DNA from: Porphyridium purpureum
Taxonomy: Eukaryota
Assembly (NCBI GenBank): GCA_008690995.1
Contig: VRMN01000002.1
Location: forward strand, 930,001-994,000
Direction: 5' to 3'
DNA: 64,000 bases
A program made the translations under genes and the position numbers. Under the pieces are notes generated by a model. That model did not search any database and was not told the origin of the DNA. It worked only from the letters and a program-made list of their open reading frames with translations. Below, in pieces: positions 1,786 to 43,453 of this stretch (position 1 is its first letter; the number at the start of each line of letters is the position of its first letter).

Positions 1786-3336
1786 TTACACAAGGCCGCT
1801 GTCAAGCTCCGCGGGCTTGGTCAGGAGACGTATGATGTGCGCGTGGCTCAAGCGACCCGCCAACTTTATCAGGAGCCCTTCAATATCCGCATGTTTCCGC
1901 AACGACCCAGAAGTCTGGTCCACTTCGAAGTGCCGCATCCGCGGCAGTGCGTTCTCGAAAGGACTAAATAGTTTCATGATTACCGTTTGTTTCTCAGGGA
2001 CATCTGCGTGACGATTGATATCTGCATCACAATTGATGAGCAACTCAATCATATCTACAACTTGCCACGGCGTACGATCCTCTTGCCCCCATCGATGCCA
2101 TCTGCTCAAGAGCAGGTAGTCCAGCGGCGTGTCTCCACTTTCGTCAGGTTGATCAGCGGGAACGCCGGCGCGGATCAGCAAGTACGCACAACGCAAACTC
2201 TTCCAATCGCGGACACTGCCCTGTGCCGCAAAAGCACCAATAAATTTGTGCAAAGCCGTTTCGCCCCGCCTCGTGACAGCAGACGCGTCCGCGCCTTTTT
2301 TCAGCAGCAGACCAATGCATTCATTCCGCCAAACACCAGCACTTTCAGCGTCCTCAGACGCCGATACGGCGTAAAAAAGAGCATTCTCGCCCCGACTATC
2401 GATCTTATTGACCCATGCTCCATGTTCCAAGAGAACGTGCACGCATTCTAGGTGTCCGCTCCGAGTAGCATGCATTAGCGATGTCGTTCCGCACGCGCCT
2501 TCCGACGCATTCACATCCGCGCCGTGATCGACGAGCCGGCACACGCACGTGGTGTGCCCATTTGAAGCAGCAGCACCCAACGGCGTCCGCCCTAAAGCAG
2601 TCGTCGCGTGTACCATTGCACCATGCTCGATCAAAAGTCGGACACACTCGTCATGGCCAAACTCGGCCGCCATCATCAAAGCTGTTTGGCCTTGCTCGTC
2701 CGCCGCGTTCACATTTGCGTCATGCTCCATGAGCAAACTCAGACACGAATCGTGTCCTTTTCGAGCAGCGCTCATTAAAGCCGTCCTCCCCCTTCCAGTC
2801 ACCGAGTTCACATCCGCGCCATGCTGGATCAACAAACTCACGCAGACGTGGTTCCCATACGACGCAGCACTCATCAAGGCCGTCTCGCCGTGTATTGAAT
2901 CCCCGATATTCACGGAAGCCCCAAACTTCACGAGGTGAGAGAGACACGTGCTCTGTCCATACGCAGCAGCATGCATTAATGCTGTTTTCCCGAAGCAATC
3001 TGCATCGTCCACGTGCGCTCCATGTTCGATCAGCAAGCAAACACATGCGCCATTGCCATGTCTTGCGGCATAGATGAGAGCCGTTCTTCTGTACGGACAG
3101 CGGGCGTTGACGTCCCCTCCATGCTCAATCAGAACACGAAGGCACGCGACGCTGCCTTGCAAGGCTGCTAGCGCTGTCGGCGACAACCCGTCGCCATTGG
3201 CTTCGTCCACGGGGCAACCGACATGTAGCAGTAGCTTCACGTCGCTGTCGCACCCATATTTAGCTGCGACACAAAGCAGAGGCTCGCCTGCACATGCGCC
3301 CCATCCCGCTCGCGGCGCACCCTTGCTCGCCTTCAT
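1786..3336 (-). CDS. Ankyrin repeat protein (paralogue 1)
   Basis: About 10 repeats of G.TAL..AA..G...CV.LL..HGA.VN; first ATG at 3336 (ORF track starts at TTG 3342). Confidence 0.9.
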   Translation of the reverse strand: MKASKGAPRAGWGACAGEPLLCVAAKYGCDSDVKLLLHVGCPVDEANGDGLSPTALAALQGSVACLRVLIEHGGDVNARCPYRRTALIYAARHGNGACVCLLIEHGAHVDDADCFGKTALMHAAAYGQSTCLSHLVKFGASVNIGDSIHGETALMSAASYGNHVCVSLLIQHGADVNSVTGRGRTALMSAARKGHDSCLSLLMEHDANVNAADEQGQTALMMAAEFGHDECVRLLIEHGAMVHATTALGRTPLGAAASNGHTTCVCRLVDHGADVNASEGACGTTSLMHATRSGHLECVHVLLEHGAWVNKIDSRGENALFYAVSASEDAESAGVWRNECIGLLLKKGADASAVTRRGETALHKFIGAFAAQGSVRDWKSLRCAYLLIRAGVPADQPDESGDTPLDYLLLSRWHRWGQEDRTPWQVVDMIELLINCDADINRHADVPEKQTVIMKLFSPFENALPRMRHFEVDQTSGSLRKHADIEGLLIKLAGRLSHAHIIRLLTKPAELDSGLV

Positions 3337-3718
3337 CCGCAATGGCCGAGATCACACAGCACGAGTGCCACGCGTACCTCGGCGCAAATCGAATCTCAGG
3401 ATGTCACGCTGTGGAGGGAAGACGAGCGAAGGTAGGGAGTCGGGACAGTGTTTGTGCGAGATGTTCAAGGCTGGATGCTCGGACCAGGTCAGAAGCGTCG
3501 AACATACGCAGCACGAGTTGTACGTCGGGGTTGTTAGGGAGACCTAAAGTGCAGAACAATTTTGCGCGGGGAGCGTGTTCAATCGGGCGGGTCGGGAAAC
3601 AGGAAGTTTGGACGCGCATTCAGTCTGCTCAGTTTCTGTATGTTGCAGTCCATGCACCATCAAGAAGATCGCTGATCTCGCACATTGAGCCGGAAGGTAA
3701 AACACGTTTGCCTTCAGC

Positions 3719-5002
3719 ATGTCTACGGGTGGTGAATCTCTCCTGTGCGTCGCGGTGGAAACAGGAAATGAGGCCGAGGTGGAGCGTCTGTTGCAACGTG
3801 GGTACCCGATTGAAGAGGGAGGTGTTCCGGGTAGAACTCCGGCCTTTTTAGCGGCAGCAGACGGGAACCTTGCCTGCCTTCGTCTTCTGATCAAATATGG
3901 CGCAAATGTGGACGCAGGGGATCAGTGGTGGGGGCGAACCCCACTGATGGCTGCTGCTCGGACACGGCAAAACTCATGCATGCGTCTCCTGATTGAGCAC
4001 GGCGCAGACGTGAATATTGCTGACTTCTCGGGGAAAACCGCCTTGATCTTTGCCACCGACTTTGGCGATGGAGAGTGCGTTCGCACGCTCATTGAGTGTG
4101 GGGCGGATGTGAATGTTGCTGACGACGACAGCAGGACGCCTTTGATTCATGCTGCTGCAAAGGGTTGTGACGCCTGCGTTCGCGTGTTGTTGCAGCATGG
4201 CGCAGATGTAAATGTGAAGGGAGATGCGGGATGGACAGCCTTGATAAAAGCTGCCGAAAAGGGACTTGGGTCCTGCGCCCGGCTTCTGATCGAGCACGGA
4301 GCGGATGTAAACGCCACTACGGATTATGGCTGGACTGCGTTGATGTATGCTGTTTGGAATGGGCTTGATTCAGCTGTGAATTTCCTGCTCGAGCACAGCG
4401 CCCGCGTCGACATGACTGACCGCTTCGGGGTGACTGCCCTCCACCTCGCAGCGCAGAAAGCCCGCTCGAGGTGCGTTCGTTCTTTGTTGAAATATGGTGC
4501 CGATGGAAATGCAGAAGCAAAGGACGGAATGACAGCTTTGCACAAGCTTGCTTTGAAGGAATGGTGCTTCAGCCGGGCATGGGAGAGCCTCGTCGTCGCT
4601 CAGCTTTTAATCAGTCACGGCGTCGCTGTGGACCGACGTGACGGACACGGGAATACGGCTCTGGACTTGCTCCTGACTTTGAAGCAGTCTTTTCAGATGA
4701 GTGACGGTCCAAATCAGTGTCTGGTGGATTTGTTTGAGCTGCTTGTCCGAGGCGGCTCGGACGTCAATCGGCACGTGAACGACATTGAGAAGCCAACTGC
4801 GTTTATGAAGCTCTTGAATGTTTTGGAGTACGAAAAGGAAGTGCATCTTGGACGGGTGGAGTATGACATTGAAGGCTTGCTCGTTATAAATATCGGTCGG
4901 GTGAACAAGGCCCATATCGTGCGTCTCCTGTTCGAGTATTCTGCAAATGGCGGTGATGGATTTGATTCTCTCAGTTTGCTTGAAGAGGACAACGGGAATT
5001 GA
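3719..5002 (+). CDS. Ankyrin repeat protein (paralogue 2)
   Basis: 427 aa, repeated TPL/TAL..AA...LL.HGADVN units; C-terminus similar to paralogue 1. Confidence 0.9.
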   Translation: MSTGGESLLCVAVETGNEAEVERLLQRGYPIEEGGVPGRTPAFLAAADGNLACLRLLIKYGANVDAGDQWWGRTPLMAAARTRQNSCMRLLIEHGADVNIADFSGKTALIFATDFGDGECVRTLIECGADVNVADDDSRTPLIHAAAKGCDACVRVLLQHGADVNVKGDAGWTALIKAAEKGLGSCARLLIEHGADVNATTDYGWTALMYAVWNGLDSAVNFLLEHSARVDMTDRFGVTALHLAAQKARSRCVRSLLKYGADGNAEAKDGMTALHKLALKEWCFSRAWESLVVAQLLISHGVAVDRRDGHGNTALDLLLTLKQSFQMSDGPNQCLVDLFELLVRGGSDVNRHVNDIEKPTAFMKLLNVLEYEKEVHLGRVEYDIEGLLVINIGRVNKAHIVRLLFEYSANGGDGFDSLSLLEEDNGN

Positions 5003-5235
5003 GACCCGTGTCTGAATGAACCAATTTCCAGGTACGAAACAGACAGGCAAGACACGGATTTGCACGCTTCGAGCATTTCAGCAGCTGATTGAGCGGAGAC
5101 GCATCTGTGGGATGGACACACTTGTAGCGCTGCGGATTCCGGCACCAAGCCCGTTTGCAAGGGGTGCGTGTCTATGATTAGCCGCAGAAACAGTGTGACT
5201 TTCATTCTGGCGAGGTTCGCTTTTCTACCACCTGT

Positions 5236-6489
5236 CTAGACTTGCAGTACATCTTGAAAGAGTCGCCGCATGTGATCGTGAGATATTCGCGCACGATGGT
5301 TCAAAATAAACTCCTCTGCACTCTCCGGATGCGCTCGAGCAAAGACCATCAAAGGTGTGGGACATCCGAACTGTTCTGCACCGGTGTTAATGTTCGCACC
5401 GCATCGGACTAAAAAGGACAAAAGGAGTTGCGCCATGTGCGCGGAACTCCTCCATGCGGTCACGGCAAGATGCATCGGAGTCTCACCGCGTGAATCGACA
5501 AAGTCCGCGGACAGCCCGTACTGAGTGAAAAGTTGAATGAGATCAGACGCGTCACGCATGCTTGCGGCTGAAAGATCGTAGGAGAGCAGCATATGCAACG
5601 CAGTCCTACCAGTGGAATCTGTGGCCCACGCGCTCGCTCCAAGCTTCAACAGACGCAGGCACGGATCACGCCCTTCAGGCACGGCTTCGAGCAAAGCTGT
5701 ATGGCCAGAAGAGGTAGTCCGTTCTTCTAAATCAGCGCCGTGCTCCATTAGGATCTTCACACACTCCGTCGAGCCCCAAAGACCCGCATTCATTAGTGGC
5801 GTGCGCCCTTGACGGTCTCGCGCATCAAGATCCGCACCACGCTCGAGCAAAATCTGAACGAAAGTCTTCTGATCGCTTTCCGCGGCAAGCGCGAGGAGTG
5901 TCTTGCCGGCTTGGTCCCTCATCTCCACGCTCGCCACATGCTCAATGAGCAATCGAAAGCACGACTCGTGCTGCTTCTCTAACGCTAGCACTACCGCCGA
6001 ACGACCGTATCGATCTGCACATTCAATGGCAGCGCCGTGCTCTAGCAGTAATTGGAGACACTCTTTACGGCCCCACTTCGCCGCAAGATGGAGCGCCGTC
6101 TGCCCCTTGTCATTCTTCACGTCCAGTAGCGGGCGATGTCTCAGCAACTCATCTAAGCAGTCCTTTTGATCGAATTTAGCAGCAAGCATGACCAACGTCC
6201 ATCCCGTCATCGGATCAACCATGTCTAAATCCACGCCATGACGCGCCAACTCGCGCAGAATCCGAACGCGCCCATGCCTCACCGCGTCCCACAGCGCCTC
6301 AAACACGCCCATCCTGACTGCGTCCTGTCCCACGTCGCGCTCGGCAGCCTGCTCATACTTCATACATTCTCTCACACCACGCACATCACCGCGCGCGATG
6401 CACGCACGCATTTCTGTGGCCCAGACGCTTTCCATGCGCGTGCTTGCAGCCACGCCGCGACGCCGCGACGCCGCGGTTGCGCAGCTCAT
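5236..6489 (-). CDS. Ankyrin repeat protein (paralogue 3)
   Basis: GQTALHLAAKWGRKECLQLLLEHGA etc.; first in-frame ATG 6489 (alternative 6435). Confidence 0.88.
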   Translation of the reverse strand: MSCATAASRRRGVAASTRMESVWATEMRACIARGDVRGVRECMKYEQAAERDVGQDAVRMGVFEALWDAVRHGRVRILRELARHGVDLDMVDPMTGWTLVMLAAKFDQKDCLDELLRHRPLLDVKNDKGQTALHLAAKWGRKECLQLLLEHGAAIECADRYGRSAVVLALEKQHESCFRLLIEHVASVEMRDQAGKTLLALAAESDQKTFVQILLERGADLDARDRQGRTPLMNAGLWGSTECVKILMEHGADLEERTTSSGHTALLEAVPEGRDPCLRLLKLGASAWATDSTGRTALHMLLSYDLSAASMRDASDLIQLFTQYGLSADFVDSRGETPMHLAVTAWRSSAHMAQLLLSFLVRCGANINTGAEQFGCPTPLMVFARAHPESAEEFILNHRARISHDHMRRLFQDVLQV

Positions 6490-6676
6490 ACGCGTCGCCG
6501 CCACCGCTCGTCTTCGCGCGTTCCCGCGTCCGTGGTCCACTGTTTCCGGATTTTCATATAAAACTGCGCTTGTTTCTCTGTGAAACCACCGAGAAACCGA
6601 AAGTTGGCGTGCGTGCCAAACGGTGTGCGTGTCGCGCGCGGTTGTGCGTCACGCGGCGAGAGGTATTGTGGGCGAG

Positions 6677-27454: not shown

Positions 27455-28033
27455 CTAGCTGGCTGATTTAGTTCGAAAGATCCCAACGAATGGCAGATGC
27501 CTGAGCGACTGATTGTAGTCGAGTCCGTACCCAACCACAAACTCATCTGCGATCTCAAAGGCCACGAACTCGACTGGCGGTGTCCCCTCAAGACGACGCG
27601 ATGTGTTCTTATGCAGCAATGTGCACGCCGCGACGCTCTTGCAGTCAAGCTCGCGCACCGCCTGCTTCAGTTTCTGAAGCGTGAGCCCAGTATCCACGAT
27701 ATCCTCGACGATCAACACGTGCCTGCCGGTCAAGTCGACGTGATCGAGCCCTGATAGCTTCACCTGGCCTGAGGACCCGGTGCCCTCATAGCTGGACGCC
27801 TTAATAAAGTAAACTTCCAGCTTGCTCAGTGGGATAGCGCGGGTCAAGTCTGCGACAAACATGTATGAGCCCGTCAGCACACCCAGAATAACCAGCGGTT
27901 GGTCTCGGTACGCCTCGCCGATTTGCGCTCCGAGCTCTTTCACACGCGCGCCAATGCGTTCTTCCGAGAGCAGCACGCGCGCGACTTGGTCTTGAAACTC
28001 GTCCGGCACCGATTCGACGAGGCCGTCCGCCAT
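27455..28033 (-). CDS. HPT: Hypoxanthine phosphoribosyltransferase
   Basis: VLIVEDIVDTGLTL PRPP motif, ASSY, FVVGYGLDY; ATG at 28033 (track extension upstream runs antisense into the Fanzor remnant). Confidence 0.93.
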   Translation of the reverse strand: MADGLVESVPDEFQDQVARVLLSEERIGARVKELGAQIGEAYRDQPLVILGVLTGSYMFVADLTRAIPLSKLEVYFIKASSYEGTGSSGQVKLSGLDHVDLTGRHVLIVEDIVDTGLTLQKLKQAVRELDCKSVAACTLLHKNTSRRLEGTPPVEFVAFEIADEFVVGYGLDYNQSLRHLPFVGIFRTKSAS

Positions 28034-28249: not shown

Positions 28250-28950
28250 CGCAAGCCGCTTGAGGCAAATGTGAAGACGGCAAACGCCCGGAAAGCAGAG
28301 CGGCTGCGAGTGAGGCTCGAGCGGCGCGAGGCAATGGGGTACAACGCAGACGAGGAAAAAAAGGCCACGGCGGCACCTGCGGCAAGGATGCGATGACCAG
28401 CGCTGTGCGCTGCGCCGTGACGTAAATTGTTTACCGCAAGCGCATACGGAGCCTGAAGGAGGAGGCGCAAACTGGCACCTCGTCGTGATCCTCACGCAAG
28501 AGTACGGTGGTATCCTGCTGCCCACGCTTGAGATATCCAATGGAAGTCGCTACCATGACTGCAAGCTCCGCTACAAGACCACGCGTCAGATGGACCGCAG
28601 GCGCCACCATTGCTTGTTCGACGATGCTTGCGGTCAATGGCGCCCCGACGCGGGTCGGAGCTGGTAGTGGCTAACGAGGCGTACGCGTCCAAGACCTTCA
28701 GCGCTTGCGGAATGGCCACGACAACTCTGCGCGGCGCCTACCTCTTCGTGTGTAGCTCTACGGGCTGTGGTACAAATATAAACCAGGACGTCCAAAAAGG
28801 CACCAAGAACATTGGACTGCGGAAAAACTTTGGAGCACTGGGCATCTCCGTGCCCTACTTTGGGATCCATCGTCTCTGGCCTGAAGAAGACGGTGAACGA
28901 GACGACACCATATTCGTCGCTGATCTCACCAAGGACGGGGAGGGGCAGAG
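28250..28950 (+). mobile_element. Degenerate TnpB/Fanzor2-type nuclease remnant (copy A)
   Basis: Across two frameshifts: RKRIRSLKEEA / VILTQEYGGILLPTLEIS...KLRYKTTRQM...H / ELVVANEAYASKTFSACG...LRGAYLFVCSSTGCGTNINQDVQKGTKNI; matches IS607-TnpB/Fanzor2 C-terminal pattern; boundaries approximate. Confidence 0.82.
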
Positions 28951-29060
28951 CCTTTGCACGGGAGAGCATCATTCATTTTATCGCACCATCTCTTTCTACT
29001 TGCAGAATGCTTTCAGTTCTTTTAAGGTTATCCAATTCTCAGAAGGAGGGAGCAGGCGTG

Positions 29061-31898
29061 CTACGGAGTTCCAAGAAGTCCGAGGAACGAGGTCTTTCGA
29101 CGAGTACAACTTTCGTCCACCTCAGCCCCGGATCCACTGATGGGCAATCCTCCTGGTTCGCTCGTCCCAAACCCAGCTTCTCGTTCCGTTTGATCTCTTT
29201 GTGAATGCAAGCGATTTGTAACCTGCGAAACTTCTGGCACTGCATCGCTCGTAGCAGAGCTCGCGAGAACGCGACTGCCTGGATCAGTTCTGTGACTTGT
29301 ACTTCTGCCTCGTCGACGCTCACCGCGCCAGCGGTGCCCTTCTCTATCAGTCTGACCGGCGCGACCGGCTTCGCAACTTCGGGCATCTCGCCCAGCTTCC
29401 TCTCCATCTCGCTGACTGACAAGCCCTGAATTCCCTGCATGTGCATCCTCTGCTCGTGCGGATTGCTGCGATCGTGCGCCTTTGGGCTTCCCCACAGCAG
29501 CTCGAGGTGCAGCACCAGAGCCCTCCTTTTGCTTCGCTTGATCTGCCAACGAATCTAAGAATTTGGAGGCAACAAACATGTTTGGTTTTGATTCACTTGC
29601 ATCAGAGCCCGCCAAGCGCATGCTGTCTCGGTCATTGCTTTGACGCACATGACCGCCTTCTCCATGCCCACTCCGTCCGCCTCGCCGACCTTGCCCACCT
29701 CGACTGGCCTGATCGCTGTGACCAACCTTCGACCCTTGAGCACCCAAGCTACCACGGCTTCGGTCTTGCTGACTGAACCGCTGCGGGTTGCGCGCCTGTG
29801 CAACGTCTGCTCGCGCCAATCGAGGCAATTGTGAGCCTTCACGCTTCTGCGCTGTAGCTTGCTGTACATGGCCAATCATGCGACGCATACATTTAAAGCT
29901 GTCCATTCGTACATTAGCGGTCACGTCTCGAACAGACATGCCGATGGTGCCGGAGTTTACGGTGAACAACCGGGGATCTCGCGGAAACAGGAAGTCGTAA
30001 ACGACATCTTCCGTACTTCTGTTCAGCTGAGCAAACGCATCAAGCATTGGGACCAACGAAACCGTACCACTTCTGTAAATCTGCTCTTTTGAAGTGAAAG
30101 TGTCCAAGTCGATGCGGTCGGCAATGGAAGCGACAACGTCTGGCAGCGCATTCTTTCTCATGGGCGCCGGCACGCATAGCAGCCCTGCTGCGTAAGCGCA
30201 CAGTCCGCGCTTGTAAGATATTGCGGGGTCTGGTGAATAGATTTCAAGAAATGCGTCCTGCTGTGAGTTTGAAATCCACTCCAACACCATCGCAACCGGC
30301 GGAGAAAATGGAGCGCAATACATGAAGTAAGGGTCCACACAGCAACCATCCACATACATGAATGTGCACCAAAGAACACCGTTCAAATACTGCACAACAT
30401 TGCACATCTTACTCGGGTCGTCAGGGTATACGCTAGCAAAAAGTTCGGCTTCCTTTCGGAACATCTCAAGTAAAGCTGGCTCAACTTCCACTGTCTCTGC
30501 CATTTCTTTCACACTTCTGATTCTCCCGCTAATAATGCTTGCATCATCATCTTCTTCGTCTTCGGTGCTTAGGACATCCTCCAAAATTTCACTTTCCTCA
30601 GACTCAGTATCAGATTTGTTTGTCTGCACCTCAAATTCACTTCCCTCGCCATCATTTTCCACGTGAATCTGTGTCATTTGGGCCAGTTTGGCTTGCTTGG
30701 CTTGTCCTTCACGTACCTTCATGGCCTTGTAGGTGCTCACCCGAGATCTGAAGTTATCCAGTTGTAGCCTTTCGCGCGTAGGTAGTTCACGGCGCGAGGA
30801 CCCCTTGAAATTCTGCAAAAAGGAGAAGAAAAACTTCCAGTTGAATGTCCGCTTTGACACGTTCAAAAGCGCACTGGCACCAGACGGAAGCTTGGACCCT
30901 GCTGGTGTCGCTTCGGCCCACGAAAAGGACTCCTTCCGCACCTTAGCATAAGCTTCCAGGGCGGAGGCGGGAGACAGGTGCCCAAGCTTCCTGAGGTAAT
31001 CGTTCCCGACCATGGTACACATACATATAAAGTCAGCGACAAGCCGGGCTTCATCCAGTTGGATACTACTCTTCTTGACGTGCCGAGAGGGATCCCGAGC
31101 GGCCATGCTCTTACTCAGAAGTACTCGCGCCTCATCAATACGCAAAATTTCGTCGCCCACCACGTATAGGGACGAGTATTCAGTCAGTCCCAACATTTGC
31201 ACGAATAGGTCGCTATCCGCACCCACGACTACGGTCACGTCGTCCACAGTAGGAAGTGTTTTCCACCGAAAGCCGCTGACTGTCTGCATGCTCGATGGTT
31301 CACGGATAGCACTTGCCAGATACTCAAGAATTTTGAGCTCGCCTTCGCCAGGCACGTCGCAACTCGAAACAATCACATCAAGGTGTGGCGTCCCGTTCGA
31401 CTTTTCTTTCGCGCCCGCGACTGTTCGTGCAGCATATTTCTTGAGCGCAATGTGCAAGTGCCTCATCAATGCAGTACCTGGAGTCAAAGCAGAGCGCTCC
31501 AAGGGAGAATCGCTCCGTATGCCCGCATCCTCGACAACTTCTTCCGTAAGCTTCCGCCGATCTCTCTGCTCAAACAGCTTGCCAAGAGGAGCGGCGCCAT
31601 CCACGGCAATGAAAAGGGACTTGCGTGGCCGGAGCTGCTTGATGATTTCGTCAAGCTTCTATTGTATCGAGCCAACCATTTGGCGATAAAAAAACGACTC
31701 TTGTTGTGTCAGCGGCTTTTTCTGCGTCCGTTTCTTGACGGCATGATGGGTCTCATGCAGCAAGCAGTTCATGTCCACCAGCACATGGTCGACACCCGCG
31801 GCAAACACCCGCGCCATGTCCTTCTTATTTTTGCTGCGGCCCTTGTGAGCCGACTTGACCGAGCTCTTCAGCCATTTGTGCAGGTCCTTCACGCCCAT
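29061..31898 (-). CDS. XRN-family 5'-3' exoribonuclease-like protein with one in-frame TAG at 31659-31661
   Basis: MGV..L.KWL, VLVDMNCLLH, RPRKSLFIAVDGAAP.GKLFEQR.RR, VPGEGELKI, GADSDL, MVGNDYL, QYLNGVLW...Y; the two track ORFs are in the same frame. Confidence 0.85.
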
Positions 31899-32171
31899 CA
31901 ATGCCACCCCGCCCACTCGACGACACAATCCCGCCACTCGTCAGCCTTCTGTCTTCGCGCCACGACTGGCACCGGAAAGCGGCGATTTGGCCAGGACTTT
32001 CCTGCACAGGGTTCCAAGTTGAAATCTTGACGGCGTACAGGCGATGGACGCAGTCTTGGAAAGTCTTTTGGTGGTACTTGAGAAGGACAGAAGGATAGCA
32101 GTTAATGAATCGGCCCGTCGCTCTAGAGCTCCTCACCAGACTGCTGAAAGGATACAGAAAATTCTAAATCT

Positions 32172-36521: not shown

Positions 36522-38516
36522 ATGAGGTTTGTAGAGGGAGGAGAGGGAGGGGAGGAGGAGGGTGCTGGGGGGAGGACAGAAGGACGGTGGGGGTGGGTGG
36601 ATGGTGAGGATGGAGGTGTGGTGGTGCGCTGTGGTGGCACGCAGCGTCGCAGGGCATCGCGGGCTGAGCAGGTCGCGCCGTTGCGCGCGAGTGTCGCCGC
36701 CGCCGTGCAGCCGAGCGCGCGCGGTCGCTCCGCCGTCGCGCCGGCGTCCGCGTCGGCCGCCGCAGCGGGATCGGAGACTGGCGCGCAGGCGAGCAGGGCG
36801 GCCGTCGTGCCAGACGTGCCCGCGGCAGCCCGCGACGGCCATGACCACAAGCTGGCGTCCAGTAAGCGCGTAGGAGGGAAGAAGGCGGCGTCCGAATCCA
36901 CGCAGCATGCGGCGCGTGGAGCAAGCAGTGGCGTCGAGTCGAAGCGTGGCGCGGAAGGCCAGAGACGGCTGCGCGAGTTGCAGCAGGAAGGGAGCGAAAC
37001 GCTCGAGCTGGAGCATCTGGATGATCAGATGCACGCTCCCAAGCTGCCCGTGTGGCTCGGCCGAAAACACAAGGAAGAGTCAAAGGCAAAAATTGGGCGC
37101 GCAAACAAAGGTAAGGTTCCTTGGAACAAGGGCCTCAAGCATTCAGAGGAGACGCGGCAGAAGATCGCGGCGAGCACGCGCGCCGCCATGGCAAAAGGAA
37201 AGGTAAGAGACAAGCTCGCAAGTGCCGCGAAGGGCAAGCGACATTCGGAGGAGACCCGCGCTAAAATCAAGGCGTCGCTAGCGCGGCGAAGGCGTGAAAT
37301 AGAGATAGTGAAAGGAGTAGCGCCCTCTTTGAAAACGGGTCGAGAAGCAGCGTTGAGTCTGGCATTGAAAAATGGATTGAAATCCAAAATCGGCGCGGTG
37401 CCAGAAGACCTGCTTCTCCCGCGCAATGGCCTCAGGCGAAGAAAGCAGACGAACACAGGCAGCCGCGTGACAGCGTTTCATTGGGCGCCAGAAGTGTGTG
37501 AGACCGTGCGCGCGGACTTGCAGCGCATGTGGAGTGATCCCAAATTGCGCAGAGAGCTCAACGCGCCTGTTGTGCGAAAAGAATCGCGAACTGCAGATGA
37601 AGGCTCATCCTCGGGGTTATGGCGCAGTACGCCAATGAAAGAGGAGACGAAGAAAAAGTTGTCGGAACGAATCAAAGCCATGTGGGCCGACCCTGAATAT
37701 CGCGAGCGGGTGGCCAAGGGCCTTGCGGAGCGCAAAATGCGCGAAGAGCACTTGAAGCGCAACGATCCGCTATATCGGCAATCGAAATTGCTCTCTGAGA
37801 GTCACCGCGAGAAGATCCGCCAGAGCCTACGGCGCAAACACCGAGAAAGACAGGCTGAGCTAGAATCAAGCGGTGTGTCTGAGAAATCACGGGCGCCGCA
37901 AAGGAGAAGCGCTCATGAATCACGTGATTTGAACGGCAGGCTGAACGATGGTCGCCGTGTGAGTCAGGGATCTGGCGGGCGTCGCCTGAAAGGCAAGACG
38001 GACTCAGAAGTGATAGATGCCGTGACATTCTTTAGGGATAACTCAGCGGAAGAGCAGAATTTTGTGGAATCCCTGCAGGCTAGCGGGATTCTTCCACCAC
38101 TGGGTGATGGCGAGATGAGTGCACGGGCAGTACCATTGACCGGAGGACCAGAAGAAGTTTCTGCCCAGATTATGGAAAATGACATGAGCGGCAGCCACAC
38201 TGATATACTGAATGGTCTTGATGTTGATTTGGATATTTATGATTCGCAGGCCGAGCAAGAGAAGCTGGTCGCGTCGGAAGATAACAGTGCGTCGCCGACG
38301 ATCCGCACTGAGCAGGAGAACGTTCCGGCGGTCGACGGCATCGATGTTGGCCCACGCATTGAGGCCGAAGAAGACGAGGGGATCGAGTATGTGAGCGAGA
38401 GTGAGTATGAGACTGACGAAGACGATTGGGATTCGGAGAGTGATTCTGATTTGGAGCACGCCGATTTCGTCCTCGCAGAGCTGCGCCTTTCCTTCGCGAG
38501 GAATGACGCACACTAG
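36522..38516 (+). CDS. NUMOD3-motif nucleic-acid-binding protein
   Basis: Repeated (K/R)HSEETR.KI units, GKVPWNKG, EETKKKLSERIKAMWADPEYRE; true start uncertain. Confidence 0.75.
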   Translation: MRFVEGGEGGEEEGAGGRTEGRWGWVDGEDGGVVVRCGGTQRRRASRAEQVAPLRASVAAAVQPSARGRSAVAPASASAAAAGSETGAQASRAAVVPDVPAAARDGHDHKLASSKRVGGKKAASESTQHAARGASSGVESKRGAEGQRRLRELQQEGSETLELEHLDDQMHAPKLPVWLGRKHKEESKAKIGRANKGKVPWNKGLKHSEETRQKIAASTRAAMAKGKVRDKLASAAKGKRHSEETRAKIKASLARRRREIEIVKGVAPSLKTGREAALSLALKNGLKSKIGAVPEDLLLPRNGLRRRKQTNTGSRVTAFHWAPEVCETVRADLQRMWSDPKLRRELNAPVVRKESRTADEGSSSGLWRSTPMKEETKKKLSERIKAMWADPEYRERVAKGLAERKMREEHLKRNDPLYRQSKLLSESHREKIRQSLRRKHRERQAELESSGVSEKSRAPQRRSAHESRDLNGRLNDGRRVSQGSGGRRLKGKTDSEVIDAVTFFRDNSAEEQNFVESLQASGILPPLGDGEMSARAVPLTGGPEEVSAQIMENDMSGSHTDILNGLDVDLDIYDSQAEQEKLVASEDNSASPTIRTEQENVPAVDGIDVGPRIEAEEDEGIEYVSESEYETDEDDWDSESDSDLEHADFVLAELRLSFARNDAH

Positions 38517-38679: not shown

Positions 38680-41040
38680 TCAATGATTCAATCCCCTCCT
38701 CTGCAGATATCCGGATTTGGACGCCATTTCACCCGACAGATCCATATCAAGCATATCAATTGAGCTTGCCACGAAACGAGGCGGGCCATGCCCCGATGCG
38801 CGCTGTCTTGGCCAGTGGAAAGATCGTTTTCCTAAATGCTCCATTTGCATCGCAAACCCGTCCAGAGAAAAATACCACGCCGCACCTGGCTGGAGTGTCG
38901 CGCTTTGAACAAGCGCAAAGACACGATTCGAACTGTCTGACGCATGACGTGGCCGTTCAGCCAGCGGAACTGGCGTCCAAATATAAATTCTGCGGCAGTC
39001 GTCTTGTTCTGCAGCCACACACACGACAACACCCAAACCCAGCGCAGACCATTCGTGTGGTCGAGTCGGAAGGACACCCACAGGGCCACAAAGAATGCCT
39101 ACAAAGGTATCCAGTAAGCTGTCGAGACGCTGGGGCATTGTGTCGTCGCATGAGACACTCCCATTTTTGCCAAAGTCCTCGCATGACGCGCCGTCGTTGT
39201 CCAGCAGAAAGCACTTGTGCAGCTGAGTGCTGTGTACACTGTACAGAGCCGTGCCTGGCGAACGAAAGTAGCTGAAGAAGAGCGCATCGCGTGTGAGCTT
39301 CGCGGAATGTGTGCTCCGCCTCTCTTGAACAATATCATGCGTATTCCATGACGTCGCGAAAACAGAAAAGGGTGTCAAACTATGTCCCAGATCCAACATG
39401 TCGCCTTCCTTTCCGGATAAATCGACAACACACGTTGCTTGCGACGGCAGCTTTTCCAGCAGCCACGAGATCATCTCTGCACCAAAGCCCGTGATCCAGC
39501 CTGGTGTGTTGATGAAAACCAAGCATGAACGACCGCGCCTCCGCTGGTTCGCAGTACACGTGGCCAAAAGAGAGCTCACTGCTTCCATGTACGGCTGCGG
39601 AAAGGAAGACGGAGAAAACCCGCCAACAAAGCGTGCGTCAATCATTTCGTGTTTCGTGTACGAACACCATGCAGGGCTTAAGATTGGCGTGGTGATTCTG
39701 TTCAAGGACACAAAACCAGGCGCTGTCATTTCGGACTGGCCCGTGTCCACGTCCAACCACAGCAAATCTACGTCAGCCAAACTGCGCGATATCTCACTGG
39801 TTTGAAAGCATAGCGCGCGAGTCGCTAGTGAGCGCATGAGCATCGATTTCCCGGATTGCTTTGGACCCACACACATCCAGTACTGAGCAGGTGCGCGGTC
39901 GTCGACTGCCGACGCGGCCTCCAAATTCTGCTGCAATTTGCTCGCCATTGCATCCCAACCTTGCCATAGGTGGAAACGCGCACTTAGTTTCGAGTCGGAG
40001 TCTGTTAGACTGCTGCTTTCTGAGCCAGACGCCCTTTCCTTCACAGTTGGACTTGAAGCGTTCGAAACGACCTGGACGATCATTGAATTTAAACATTCAC
40101 AAGCCGAAATCCCGTCCAGACTGCGCAGCAATGGTGTGTACTTGTGCGACTCGGCAAACGGCTCTAAAAACTCACACATGACGAGCGCCGACACTAAGTT
40201 TTGTGGATTCAATTGAGATGATGGACCTGTCGATGATGACGTCCAGTGCCACCTTTCCAAATGAGACTTAATCTGTTCTATTCTGTGAGGGTCAGCAATC
40301 TCCCGGTTCAGGGCGCGAAACATGTGCTCGTCTCGTTTATGCTGGCCGCTTTGGTCGCACTTCGACGAGACCGTCATCTCGACGGCATAACTAGTGTACG
40401 GCGAGGAATACAGAGGCAAGAAGGTTTGCATCGGCCCCAAAGGGCACCCCAAAATATCAACACAGCCCATGAGAATTTTGATGCGCGCCCGGCCGTACAA
40501 TCTCAATTTCGTCCCTCTTGCAAGAACCAACAGCACGGAATCCCGATGCGCAAGTTTTCGCTCCGGTGCTGAAGTCGTCGAGTTGAAATGTGATGGCTCG
40601 AGCATATCTTTCAGCTCGCACACGTAGTGTCTTATGGTCAAGCTGGAGCTACTCGCCGCCCTCTTGCCTTGTGGAAGCACCGAGACATGATCATCTGGTC
40701 CCCGAACGGAAGAGACAGCATGGCTAGCATGGACTTTGTTGCCCGATGCGCTTTGGTCTTCGGCAGCGGAACCGGAAAGCGGATCTGACCTCGGCACTGA
40801 AGGTATTGTCCCCACGAACCCATAATCCTCCACTTCGGATCCTGCCTCACGAGCTGGCGATCCTGTCGCAAATTGCGTCTTGGTCGATTCGGCCCTTGCG
40901 CGGCGCCGCAAGCTTGTTTTGGCGATCGACCCCTCTAAAGATCCCGTGTCATTGTTGGAGGGACGACGGCGTGTGTGACTGCTTCTGGTGGCCTTGCCAA
41001 ACCCGCGACCGAGCACGTGTGAGGCGCGCCATGACTTCAT
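38680..41040 (-). CDS. NOL9: Polynucleotide 5'-hydroxyl kinase NOL9/Grc3
   Basis: P-loop GPKQSGKS, LDVDTGQSEM..PGFVSL, INTPGWITGFG; ATG at 41040 (track extension overlaps the Fanzor remnant). Confidence 0.87.
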   Translation of the reverse strand: MKSWRASHVLGRGFGKATRSSHTRRRPSNNDTGSLEGSIAKTSLRRRARAESTKTQFATGSPAREAGSEVEDYGFVGTIPSVPRSDPLSGSAAEDQSASGNKVHASHAVSSVRGPDDHVSVLPQGKRAASSSSLTIRHYVCELKDMLEPSHFNSTTSAPERKLAHRDSVLLVLARGTKLRLYGRARIKILMGCVDILGCPLGPMQTFLPLYSSPYTSYAVEMTVSSKCDQSGQHKRDEHMFRALNREIADPHRIEQIKSHLERWHWTSSSTGPSSQLNPQNLVSALVMCEFLEPFAESHKYTPLLRSLDGISACECLNSMIVQVVSNASSPTVKERASGSESSSLTDSDSKLSARFHLWQGWDAMASKLQQNLEAASAVDDRAPAQYWMCVGPKQSGKSMLMRSLATRALCFQTSEISRSLADVDLLWLDVDTGQSEMTAPGFVSLNRITTPILSPAWCSYTKHEMIDARFVGGFSPSSFPQPYMEAVSSLLATCTANQRRRGRSCLVFINTPGWITGFGAEMISWLLEKLPSQATCVVDLSGKEGDMLDLGHSLTPFSVFATSWNTHDIVQERRSTHSAKLTRDALFFSYFRSPGTALYSVHSTQLHKCFLLDNDGASCEDFGKNGSVSCDDTMPQRLDSLLDTFVGILCGPVGVLPTRPHEWSALGLGVVVCVAAEQDDCRRIYIWTPVPLAERPRHASDSSNRVFALVQSATLQPGAAWYFSLDGFAMQMEHLGKRSFHWPRQRASGHGPPRFVASSIDMLDMDLSGEMASKSGYLQRRGLNH

Positions 41041-41119
41041 CGCCGCGGACAAGCCCGGAGTTGAATCTACGAACCACGAACCATTGATGAGCGCTTCCAA
41101 AATCCAACAACCTCGGACG

Positions 41120-41820
41120 ACTTGCAAAGCACGGTGAGGTGAGTGTGAGACGACGAACGCCCAGAAGGGCTGCTGCGAGTGAGACTCGAGCGACGGCGTA
41201 AGGCAATGGAATAGATATTCAAATGACGAAAAAGGCCACGGCGGCGCCTGCGGCAAGGGTGGGACTGGCAGCGCTGTGCGTTGCGCCGTGCCGTGCCGTA
41301 AATCCTGTACTTCGCGCACTTACGCAACCTAAAGGAAGAGCGATAAACGAACCTGGCCGTGATCCTCGTGCGCGGGTATGACGGCAGTCTGCTGTGTACG
41401 TTTGAGGTTTCCTCTTTCATTTGGTAGCGTGACGACAAGCTCCGCTCCAAGGCCGCGCGTCAGATCGCCCGCAGGCGCCACGACCTTTTCTTTGACGCTG
41501 CTTCCGCTCAAGGGCGCCCCGACGCGACGCCGAGTAAGCTTCGGTCTACGAGGCGCACATGTCCAGGACCTTTAGCGTTCGCGGAATGATCCCGGCCAAT
41601 CCGAGTGGCCCTTAGCTGTTCGCGTGTAGCTCCGCGGCATGCAGTGCAAGTCTGAGCCTGGATGTCAGAACGGCGCCAAGAAACTTGCATGGCGGAAATA
41701 CTTTGAGGCGTTGGGCATCTCGGTGCCCTGCTTCGGGACCTCGCCCTTCTGGTCTGGTAGCGGCCCGGACCGCGATAAAGTTTCGAGTCTCGCGAGAAAC
41801 GCGAGGTAAGGGTCAAGCGA
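41120..41820 (+). mobile_element. Degenerate TnpB/Fanzor2-type nuclease remnant (copy B)
   Basis: Colinear DNA similarity to 28250-28950; HLRNLKEER*TNLAVILVRGYDGSLLCTFEVS...KLRSKAARQI...H / VYEAHMSRTFSVRG...LFACSSAACS...DV / GAKKLAWRKYFEALGISVP; several stops and frameshifts. Confidence 0.78.
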
Positions 41821-41979
41821 AAACAGAACAATATCATCACAAAAGAAGGTGCTTCACTCGACAACATGAATTAATGGGTTAAATTTCTCCGAACGACAAG
41901 AATGAGCGCGGCGCAGGACGATACCGTGGCACAGACACCGGGCGCACGCTCGTCGCGGACGAGACGCCTCTGCGAAAGA

Positions 41980-42930
41980 TCAGAGCAGCGCGCCCAGCAT
42001 CTCGCGAAGGCCAATGGAGCCTTTCGGATGCATGTCTTCGTCTTCGGCAATGTACAGGTGCATTAGTTCATTGTCGACCATGGCGGTGCATACGTCTGCC
42101 CAACTTGCCAGCGTGCTTGCATACACACAGTTGCTGTTCATGAGGGTCTGCAAAAGCACTTTCTTCTCCTTGGTGGTTGTCACCGTCGCCTCGACGGTGT
42201 CCGCGGACTTGCGCAAGTAGTGAAGCACGGTGTCCTGCAGGTCGAGCCATGTCGACTCGTGTATGTAGAGTAGCTTTGAGTCGAATCCAGAGATAGAGTC
42301 CACCAATTTGCCGGTGTTCTCGTCGACGACTGCGGCGAACTCGGCGTTCTTTTCAATGAGCGTGTTGAATGCCTGGATCGCGGTCACGTTGGAATTGACG
42401 GTGAGGACGGGTTCCATGTTTCCAAAGTCGGCGACTTTTGGGTTCCGGAGCGGCGCGGGGAGTTTGTGGAAGACGTACGACAGAATTTGCCACCCGTCGA
42501 GCACATTCAGCAACTTGGTACTGTTGGGCCCGCCAAACACCGCTAGGTAGTGCACTTTCCGCTCGACCATTGTCTTTGCGGCTTGGTACATGGTGTCGGA
42601 CTCCTTAATGGACACGAACGGGTGTCGTTTGGAGCGGTTGATGGCGTCTCTCGCTGTGTAGCCGGAGACTGGCGCGTCGTCGTTTTCGTCTGCGCCGTCG
42701 TCTTCCGGGGAGGACAGGATAGTGGTGAGCACGTCGACGACGTCGATGAACCCGATCCACTTCTTCTCAGCGGCGCTGTACACCGGCGCGATGAGCGAGT
42801 TGTGCTTCTGCAGGAGCGCGAACACGGTGCTGAGCGAGTCGCCCTCTGCGACGACGACGAGCTCGCGCGGGTCCTGCTGCAGCGCGCTTCCCGCCGGCAC
42901 GTCGTGCATTGACTTTTCCTCCGTCACCAT
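41980..42930 (-). CDS. CBS-domain protein (AMPK-gamma/SDS23-like)
   Basis: APVYS...IGFIDVVDVL, AAVVDENTGKLVDSIS, HLYI...PKGSIGLREML; ATG at 42930. Confidence 0.8.
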   Translation of the reverse strand: MVTEEKSMHDVPAGSALQQDPRELVVVAEGDSLSTVFALLQKHNSLIAPVYSAAEKKWIGFIDVVDVLTTILSSPEDDGADENDDAPVSGYTARDAINRSKRHPFVSIKESDTMYQAAKTMVERKVHYLAVFGGPNSTKLLNVLDGWQILSYVFHKLPAPLRNPKVADFGNMEPVLTVNSNVTAIQAFNTLIEKNAEFAAVVDENTGKLVDSISGFDSKLLYIHESTWLDLQDTVLHYLRKSADTVEATVTTTKEKKVLLQTLMNSNCVYASTLASWADVCTAMVDNELMHLYIAEDEDMHPKGSIGLREMLGALL

Positions 42931-43453
42931 CGTGCCCGTCCCGTCCTCCTCCCCCCCCACCCTCTTGCCTCTCCCTCACTACAAACGCACTTGCCCAATC
43001 CGTCAGCCGCACCGCACCCAACCCCCCCACCTCTCCCACCTTCCTTCACCTGTCAAGCGACCAACTGTCTGCAGATAAATGTATCACGTGGCCACCGCCA
43101 TGCCGGGCTGACTGACAGCCGCGCCAGCTTATGCGCGGTAGTGTTCTGTGCAGGCGGTACAGCGGGGGTGCGTGTTGCGCGTGGGTCGCGTGTTGATACG
43201 CACGCGACGCGCGTTGCTATAAAACGGGAATGGAACGCAATGAAACGGGCGTTCGCGCCTCGCAATGCATCGAAGCATACATTGACGCATACATTTACTA
43301 GGAGCTTGTGCGTCTTTGTGAAGGGAGAATCGAATAGAGAGAGAGAGAGGGAGGCGCCCGTAGTGAATGAGGCGGGGAGAGAGGAGGGAAGGAGGAGGGG
43401 AAATAAGGGAAGGAGGATAAGGGTGAAATAGCTGAGTGGAAAAGAGATGCGTA

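Follow-up and report, generated by a model that had tools for sequence, protein, structure and literature searches.

Two decayed fragments of a probable IS607-type Fanzor2 gene in a red-algal contig, likely copied after the gene had died

Two stretches resembling a Fanzor gene lie close together in a compact red-algal genome, and the first-pass annotation took them as members of a dispersed, old repeat family rather than the trace of a one-off insertion. This raises the question of whether the pair was produced by a mobile element or by copying of a single insertion that was already dead. The analysis covered a stretch of 64,000 nucleotides (hereafter the window), which has 55.8% GC and is dense in genes, with long unbroken ORFs.

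Results and discussion

Extent and surroundings of the two copies

The sole strong self-BLAST pair in the window joins 28261-28865 with 41135-41738 (E 5e-80); the remaining two distinct pairs span 86–97 bp, with E 1.6e-4 or weaker. In a focused pairwise alignment, which had been proposed as a check, copy B (41135-41756) and copy A (28261-28883) are identical at 449 of 632 columns (71%, E 2e-101), and gaps are few (19 of the 632). Both have the same orientation, with an offset of 12,874 bp (about 12.9 kb), in agreement with the annotated distance of less than 13 kb. The four DNA words and both translated motifs on which the annotation was based were all found in the sequence, and the colinear similarity that it described is real, while the extent of about 700 bp has to be reduced to a significant stretch of about 620–630 bp and the two-thirds identity raised to 71%; positions 41757-41820, which had been included in copy B, have no significant likeness to copy A.

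Identity per 50 columns is about 60–76% within the core and falls to background level past both borders. Core pieces beat 1000 of 1000 shuffles; flank alignments were reached by 47–651 of 1000 across tests. Weak flank similarity near the diagonal in the global tests (upstream 53–87/1000, tail 47–101/1000) hints that the homology may once have been longer than the present core, local tail alignments of A with B being null (222–474/1000). No duplication junction or target-site duplication is readable at this level of divergence. The copies and the genes that surround them are as follows.

28261..28883, + strand: copy A, sister fragment of B (alignment, PF07282, profile)
41135..41756, + strand: copy B, putative C-terminal remnant of an IS607-type TnpB/Fanzor2 gene, decayed (alignment, profile)
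27455..28033, − strand: HPRT-like phosphoribosyltransferase gene, divergent from A (domain matches)
29061..31466, − strand: XRN-like exonuclease ORF, convergent with A (domain matches)
38680..41040, − strand: NOL9-like polynucleotide kinase gene, divergent from B (Pfam CLP1_P and Cupin_NOL9)
41980..42930, − strand: CBS-domain gene, convergent with B (domain matches)

Copy B was correctly placed upstream of NOL9, since it begins 95 bp 5' of the NOL9-like ATG (41040, − strand). The intergenic spacers holding the two copies are similar in size (1027 and 939 bp). Three other features of the window may be mentioned here. The XRN-like ORF has Pfam matches to XRN_N and, weakly, XRN_M, and to nothing else; its last third reads as low-complexity or off-frame, and a second open frame is present at 29039-29554. 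The ORF at 36522-38516, convergent with the NOL9-like gene, carries two NUMOD3 motifs. At 1786-6648, three adjacent ankyrin-repeat ORFs alternate in orientation, and their DNA shows weak internal similarity.

Protein identity and active-site motifs

Read in one frame, copy A matches PF07282 (TnpB/Cas12f1 zinc-ribbon) with 32.7 bits (cut-off 26.3), and none of three pieces of copy B, each scanned alone against Pfam, gave a match. A phage TnpB found with copy A was used as seed for a profile built from 120 homologues among the matches listed, which matched the six-frame translation of the window four times, on each occasion within A or B. A profile of the subfamily described below, aligned through the frameshifts, scores A at 92.2 bits and B at 60.3, against a maximum of 23.2 for 48 control stretches. 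A PDB search with copy B gave no match, and of 13 candidates from a word-index search, for which a 75-aa piece of A served as query, none was upheld. The matched regions and the catalytic residue kept in both copies are:

28398-28864, + strand: profile match within A
41269-41749, + strand: profile match within B, covering bridge helix, RuvC-II, zinc finger, RuvC-III and C-terminal tail
41550..41552 (A 28676), + strand: codon of the shifted RuvC-II glutamate, retained by A and B

The N-terminal 337 columns of the 522-column full-length profile have no match in the window, where this profile gave five rows, four in A or B and one elsewhere at E 6. Nor would that N-terminal half fit into the spacers, which leave 228 bp ahead of A and 95 bp ahead of B. 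Upstream of the copies no significant match to the DPG motif of RuvC-I was found, the best placements (at most 5 bits) being expected by chance over 160–290 tries, and forcing the alignment to start at RuvC-I costs the scores of A and B about 25 bits. Remnants of RuvC-I guessed by eye near 28256 and 41045 were not significant and were set aside.

The DPG motif, together with a glutamate shifted C-terminally, defines Fanzors and pro-Fanzors (10.1101/2023.08.09.552727, consulted in part), and a rearranged catalytic site, as well as the presence of Fanzors in rhodophyta, is described in the part of PMC10530073 consulted. In both copies the shifted glutamate lies just before the zinc finger, in register with the relatives. 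The zinc finger and RuvC-III are recognisable but degraded: the first zinc cysteine is replaced by F in both copies and the second is lost in B too, while the last D of RuvC-III is kept and the DR preceding it is lost in both. An insertion of two residues in the zinc finger is not counted as decay, as it is also found in P0136, P0137, P0140, P0141 and L094. No intact ORF is present in either copy. Judged by sequence, A and B thus appear to be the C-terminal part only of an IS607-type TnpB/Fanzor2 gene, and neither should be able to encode an RNA-guided DNA nuclease, or to act as a working editor.

Intact relatives and phylogeny

A phmmer search with a 90-aa piece of A against 1.84 billion proteins gave 18 matches. 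All 14 that were examined are TnpB-like (the multi-stretch P0129-P0131 and P0146 were left out), and several share their C-terminal tail with A and B. The best non-repetitive matches belong to a Fanzor2-like subfamily with an N[YF]EAL tail (P0132, P0134, P0143 and P0163-P0221; loci L003 and L004, both from giant-virus bins, L094 and L096), which shows 40–43% identity over the aligned part and has the same C-terminal tail. Unlike A and B, these relatives have an intact DPG motif and zinc finger, a folded 3' region of 104–145 nt and a conserved right end. The best two of 80 viral loci are the giant-virus bin contigs L003 and L004. A viral-contig scan with the piece of A confirmed 0 of 19 matched stretches, tblastn against plasmids gave no match, and a scan of prokaryotic genomes (33 of 64 parts) found no close subfamily member among the 80 loci kept, the best segments being 26–46% identical over part of the query.

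A tree of 62 rows places A and B as sisters (100/99) nested within the N[YF]EAL-tail clade (98/90 and 100/98). The stem leading to them is 0.81 long, compared with a median end branch of 0.35; their own end branches are 0.78 for B and 0.45 for A. The tree groups the copies with IS607-type Fanzor2 and pro-Fanzor sequences and not with canonical TnpB; it holds no Fanzor1 row, and the case against Fanzor1 is that made by the PDB ranking. In this ranking the Fanzor2 of mimivirus L79 (PDB 9B0L) is the top match of the relatives' profile (E 5.7e-42, the next being 7.2e-20); it is likewise copy A's own best PDB match, but with E 0.12. In common with 9B0L, the copies have the RuvC-II glutamate shifted to a point just ahead of the zinc finger, and A has a proline at the canonical site; unlike 9B0L, they are truncated pseudogene fragments without DPG motif, N-terminal half, TnpA or structured guide RNA. 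The IS607 TnpB of cyanobacterial pro-Fanzors (10.1101/2023.08.09.552727, in the part consulted) has the same active-site layout, and its profile finds both copies, with 75 bits for A and 36 for B vs the 92 and 60 above, which come from separate scripts with slightly different penalties. The NYEAL tail is missing from the cyanobacterial sequences, which the free tree puts in a clade of their own, but an AU test in which one long outgroup row was omitted did not reject a grouping of A+B with them (p 0.21). The label Fanzor-like therefore holds on the strength of PF07282, the profiles, the shifted glutamate, the 9B0L match and the tree, and can be narrowed to IS607-type Fanzor2/pro-Fanzor.

Two of the relatives' loci have further features. 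In L003, an IS607 transposase ORF of the serine-recombinase kind (2841-3377; NF033518, 130 bits, cut-off 110) lies inside the 5' part of the Fanzor ORF (2716-4593), in another frame. In L094 (526-4144), the subfamily's Fanzor2-like gene is split and lies directly upstream of a 609-aa ORF which, by eye, looks like a eukaryotic pogo/Tc1-type transposase.

Element ends, guide RNA and transposase

IS607 elements have defined left and right ends and insert at a short motif rich in G, producing no target-site duplication, and Fanzor (OMEGA) systems have a structured guide RNA between the end of the ORF and the right end. Three relatives have in common a 10-nt right-end motif, closing a strongly folding 3' region of 104–145 nt.

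L003:4540-4643: 3' region of an intact relative
L004:4543-4687: 3' region of an intact relative
L096:1181-1305: 3' region of an intact relative
29049..29058, + strand: possible right-end remnant behind A, 9/10 to the relatives' motif, suggestive only

These 3' regions (folding z of −3.5, −5.1 and −4.3 in the three relatives) each show three hairpins, are closed by a 6-bp helix and are a candidate guide RNA scaffold, for which covariation is uninformative with three sequences.

The 9/10 motif behind A sits 187 nt into its tail, and four such matches per 128 kb correspond to a chance of about 0.8% per 250 nt. As a whole, A's tail is not significantly similar to those of the relatives (185/500 shuffles, by sum). 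For B's tail the figure is 24/500, driven by the first 70 nt against L096 (4/500), and no right-end motif is found there within 2 mismatches. Neither copy was matched by nhmmer with a profile of the three tails. The word TTGCACGG at 28954 was chosen after looking and is not counted. No left end of an element was found at A or B, no legible target motif or TAM, and no fold indicating a structured guide RNA in their tails (z +1.04 for A, +1.56 for B). The closing-helix test is null in A (566/1000) and in B (561/1000, so that the helix which appears to close B's tail is put down to chance) and weak in the relatives (18, 48 and 100 of 1000). The L003 TnpA has no convincing tblastn match in the window (best E 1.5). 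Scanning viral contigs for the right-end motif gave eight stretches, two of which are L003 and L004 and six of which have no TnpB alongside.

Shared breaks and the state of the common ancestor

The order of the events can be approached through the breaks in the reading frame, which were located by their spacing.

41302..41322 (A about 28426-28446), + strand: shared +1 frameshift region
41285..41299, + strand: GCCGT repeat, three units in the window
41488..41495 (A about 28617), + strand: shared +2 frameshift

The +1 region measures 49 nt in A, 64 nt (49 + 15) in B as read in other runs and 48 nt in the intact P0132 (hand count). In the window, B has one extra GCCGT unit (5 bases) relative to A, which masks the shared frameshift; its repeat is 10 bases longer than this in 7 of 7 runs with a contig there, and the two further units return B to A's frame. 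This suggests that the shorter repeat in the window is a collapsed assembly repeat or a strain-specific contraction. For the +2 frameshift, A and B each measure 113 nt from the KLR lysine to the catalytic glutamate; 30 of 62 relatives examined fit the pattern, and 20 of these measure 111. Three extra bases in A and two in B lie right before the NG motif of RuvC-III. The frameshifts are not introns, as the spacing is only 1–2 nt over that of the relatives.

Along the aligned path, copy A has three frameshifts and no in-frame stop, and copy B has stops at 41344, 41425, 41535 and 41613 that are invariant in four runs over B, as well as a fifth that is polymorphic (TGA at 41493, CGA in 2 of the 4 runs). 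Because these four stops are invariant and the contig of a diverged strain spanning A lists no indel there, the breaks are not assembly errors. The claim that B is the more decayed copy holds for the stops only (four fixed and one polymorphic vs none in A); its branch is also longer (0.78 vs 0.45), but a residue-level relative-rate test shows no significant difference (19 vs 14, p 0.49). That the copies are old agrees with a JC distance between them of about 0.39.

Of 48 columns conserved at 90% or more in 24 relatives, 20 are kept by both copies, 9 by A alone and 6 by B alone; at three of them (W, L and the first zinc C) both copies carry the identical change, and at ten a differing one. Differences between A and B are spread evenly by codon position (43/44/47 over 147 aligned codons), and dN/dS is 0.74 (Fisher p 0.18; 0.90 and 0.89 in the wrong frames), which leaves room for mild constraint. 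Taken together, the shared breaks, the losses at conserved columns, the codon positions and the long stem indicate that the common ancestor of A and B was probably already a pseudogene. Given the shared frameshifts, the lost zinc cysteine and the evenly spread differences, the duplication therefore most likely took place after the death of the gene. The lack of in-frame stops on A's path counts against copying after death.

Copy number

Copies were counted in the contigs of 8 of 24 listed sequencing runs, filtered and placed at 80% likeness. No third copy was found in these eight runs. With both copies as reference, no foreign contig piece covers A or B among the pieces listed; with B alone as reference, the only foreign pieces over its core, among those listed, are copy A (2 of 4 runs). 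The simulated chance of detection per target, which rests on assumed seed rules, is 1.0 at 80% identity, 0.75 at 71%, 0.33 at 65% and 0.10 at 60%. A sizeable family with members as close as A is to B is thus unlikely.

Origin of the pair

In the reading that we favour, with a probability of about two in three, a broken Fanzor2 fragment was copied 12.9 kb away by local DNA duplication or repair after the single inserted element had died. One IS607-Fanzor2 element would have inserted; going by the literature, its intact ancestor would have been a DNA nuclease steered by a guide RNA, with a serine recombinase to move it. It would then have decayed along the stem of 0.81, acquiring the two frameshifts and losing its first zinc cysteine. 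Next, a direct-orientation copy of about 630 bp would have arisen, probably through templated repair or a short duplication and not through transposition, since neither a left nor a right end can be recognised in the shared piece, and both copies would afterwards have drifted neutrally. Copy A is more likely the original than B because it may retain a right end.

The dispersed, old family proposed at first, in the form of an already frameshifted and truncated non-autonomous derivative that an IS607 transposase acting in trans spread to many sites, is the main rival reading but unlikely. A defective master that was mobilised would also predict the shared breaks and the shared 5' truncation, a red alga offers a precedent (CMe-1A, with about 150 copies some 80% identical to their consensus, in the part of PMC3627910 consulted), and copies below about 65% identity would often be missed. 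Yet the eight runs hold no third copy despite simulated detection of 0.75 at 71% and 1.0 at 80%, the shared piece lacks the ends that such a transposase needs, the tails are unlike and B is without a right-end motif, and the window contains no TnpA-like sequence (best E 1.5). These points, with the shared frameshifts and the absence of coding selection, speak against the family. Improbable in our view is that two older, independent insertions were later homogenised over about 630 bp by ectopic gene conversion, with the frameshifts copied across. The sharp identity borders, the spacers of like size (1027 and 939 bp) and flanks slightly above shuffles on the same diagonal would fit, but no flank test is clearly significant, the local tail tests are null, and the N-terminal half would have to have been lost independently to about the same point in both copies. 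The common orientation, the distance and the position of each copy between two minus-strand genes could also be what is left of a larger segmental duplication including the flanking genes, which we consider to have next to no likelihood: A lies between the HPRT-like and XRN-like genes and B between the NOL9-like and CBS-domain genes, which are unrelated families, so the flanking genes are not duplicated, and there is no other self-BLAST similarity at this offset. Such a duplication is refuted unless all the duplicated genes were lost.

It is very improbable that the fragment has been kept for a role in the host, for example by supplying a neighbouring gene with promoter or 3' UTR sequence, or as a non-coding RNA. 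RNA-library contigs do run from the CBS gene into most of B (41179-42941 in X11; from 41274 in X20), and an X6 contig joins A to the XRN-like gene (28275-31958), X6 showing a poly(T)-adapter end elsewhere; the scarcity of gaps between A and B (19/632 columns) is in line with such a role. The contigs show neither strand nor ends, however, and those from CBS to B fit an antisense 3' UTR or read-through. No Rfam match was found at A or B (16 kb scanned, with one chance-level match elsewhere), and neither has a significant fold (z +1.04 and +1.56). Both copies moreover vary more between strains than the sequence beside them (at least 9/623 vs at most 30/4578, p 0.044; 13/940 vs 0/461, p 0.007), which fits neutral drift. 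Separately, the RNA-library contig of the NOL9-like gene stops at 41047 with 28 loose letters; 14 of these were tested and have no exact match in the window, and they are possibly adapter or chimera.

Comparison with described Fanzor elements

In the part of PMC3627910 consulted, Fanzor2 is reported to occur in IS607-type elements, and the Fanzor1 family CMe-1A of Cyanidioschyzon merolae is described with about 150 copies, at about 80% to the consensus. The pair resembles CMe-1A in that both consist of Fanzor repeats, old and decayed, and lie in compact algal genomes; it differs, by description, in that CMe-1A is a Fanzor1 with about 150 copies and some intact ORFs, while A and B are two dead copies of Fanzor2 type. 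Bangiophyceae hold uncharacterised Fanzor elements according to the part of 10.1101/2025.02.11.637652 consulted, and among our algal look-ups in the portion consulted of the curated set of 10.1101/2023.08.09.552727 (PMC10711439 supplement), only CMe-1 was present. Two pattern matches from the presumed host genus in the consulted part of that supplement look like unrelated host proteins. No description of the pair was found in the literature, which is weak evidence of absence as subscription papers were thinly covered.

Dead Fanzor copies in eukaryotes, red algae included, are already known, and A and B are an ordinary genomic fossil in this respect. They do indicate that this compact genome was once entered by an element of Fanzor2 type, and not Fanzor1. 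A transposon gene present in two copies need not belong to a mobile family, because here the shared frameshifts probably date the duplication after the death of the gene. It is tempting to go further and see in the pair the fossil left when an IS607-Fanzor2 element passed from a giant virus to the red-algal nucleus, marking an undescribed Fanzor2 subfamily whose intact members, with a compact three-hairpin guide RNA of 104–145 nt, would be candidate compact editors, but this is a speculative view that we hold to be possible and rather doubtful. A useful lead is in any case given by the intact relatives L003, L004 and L096, which keep the nuclease, the right end and the predicted guide RNA.
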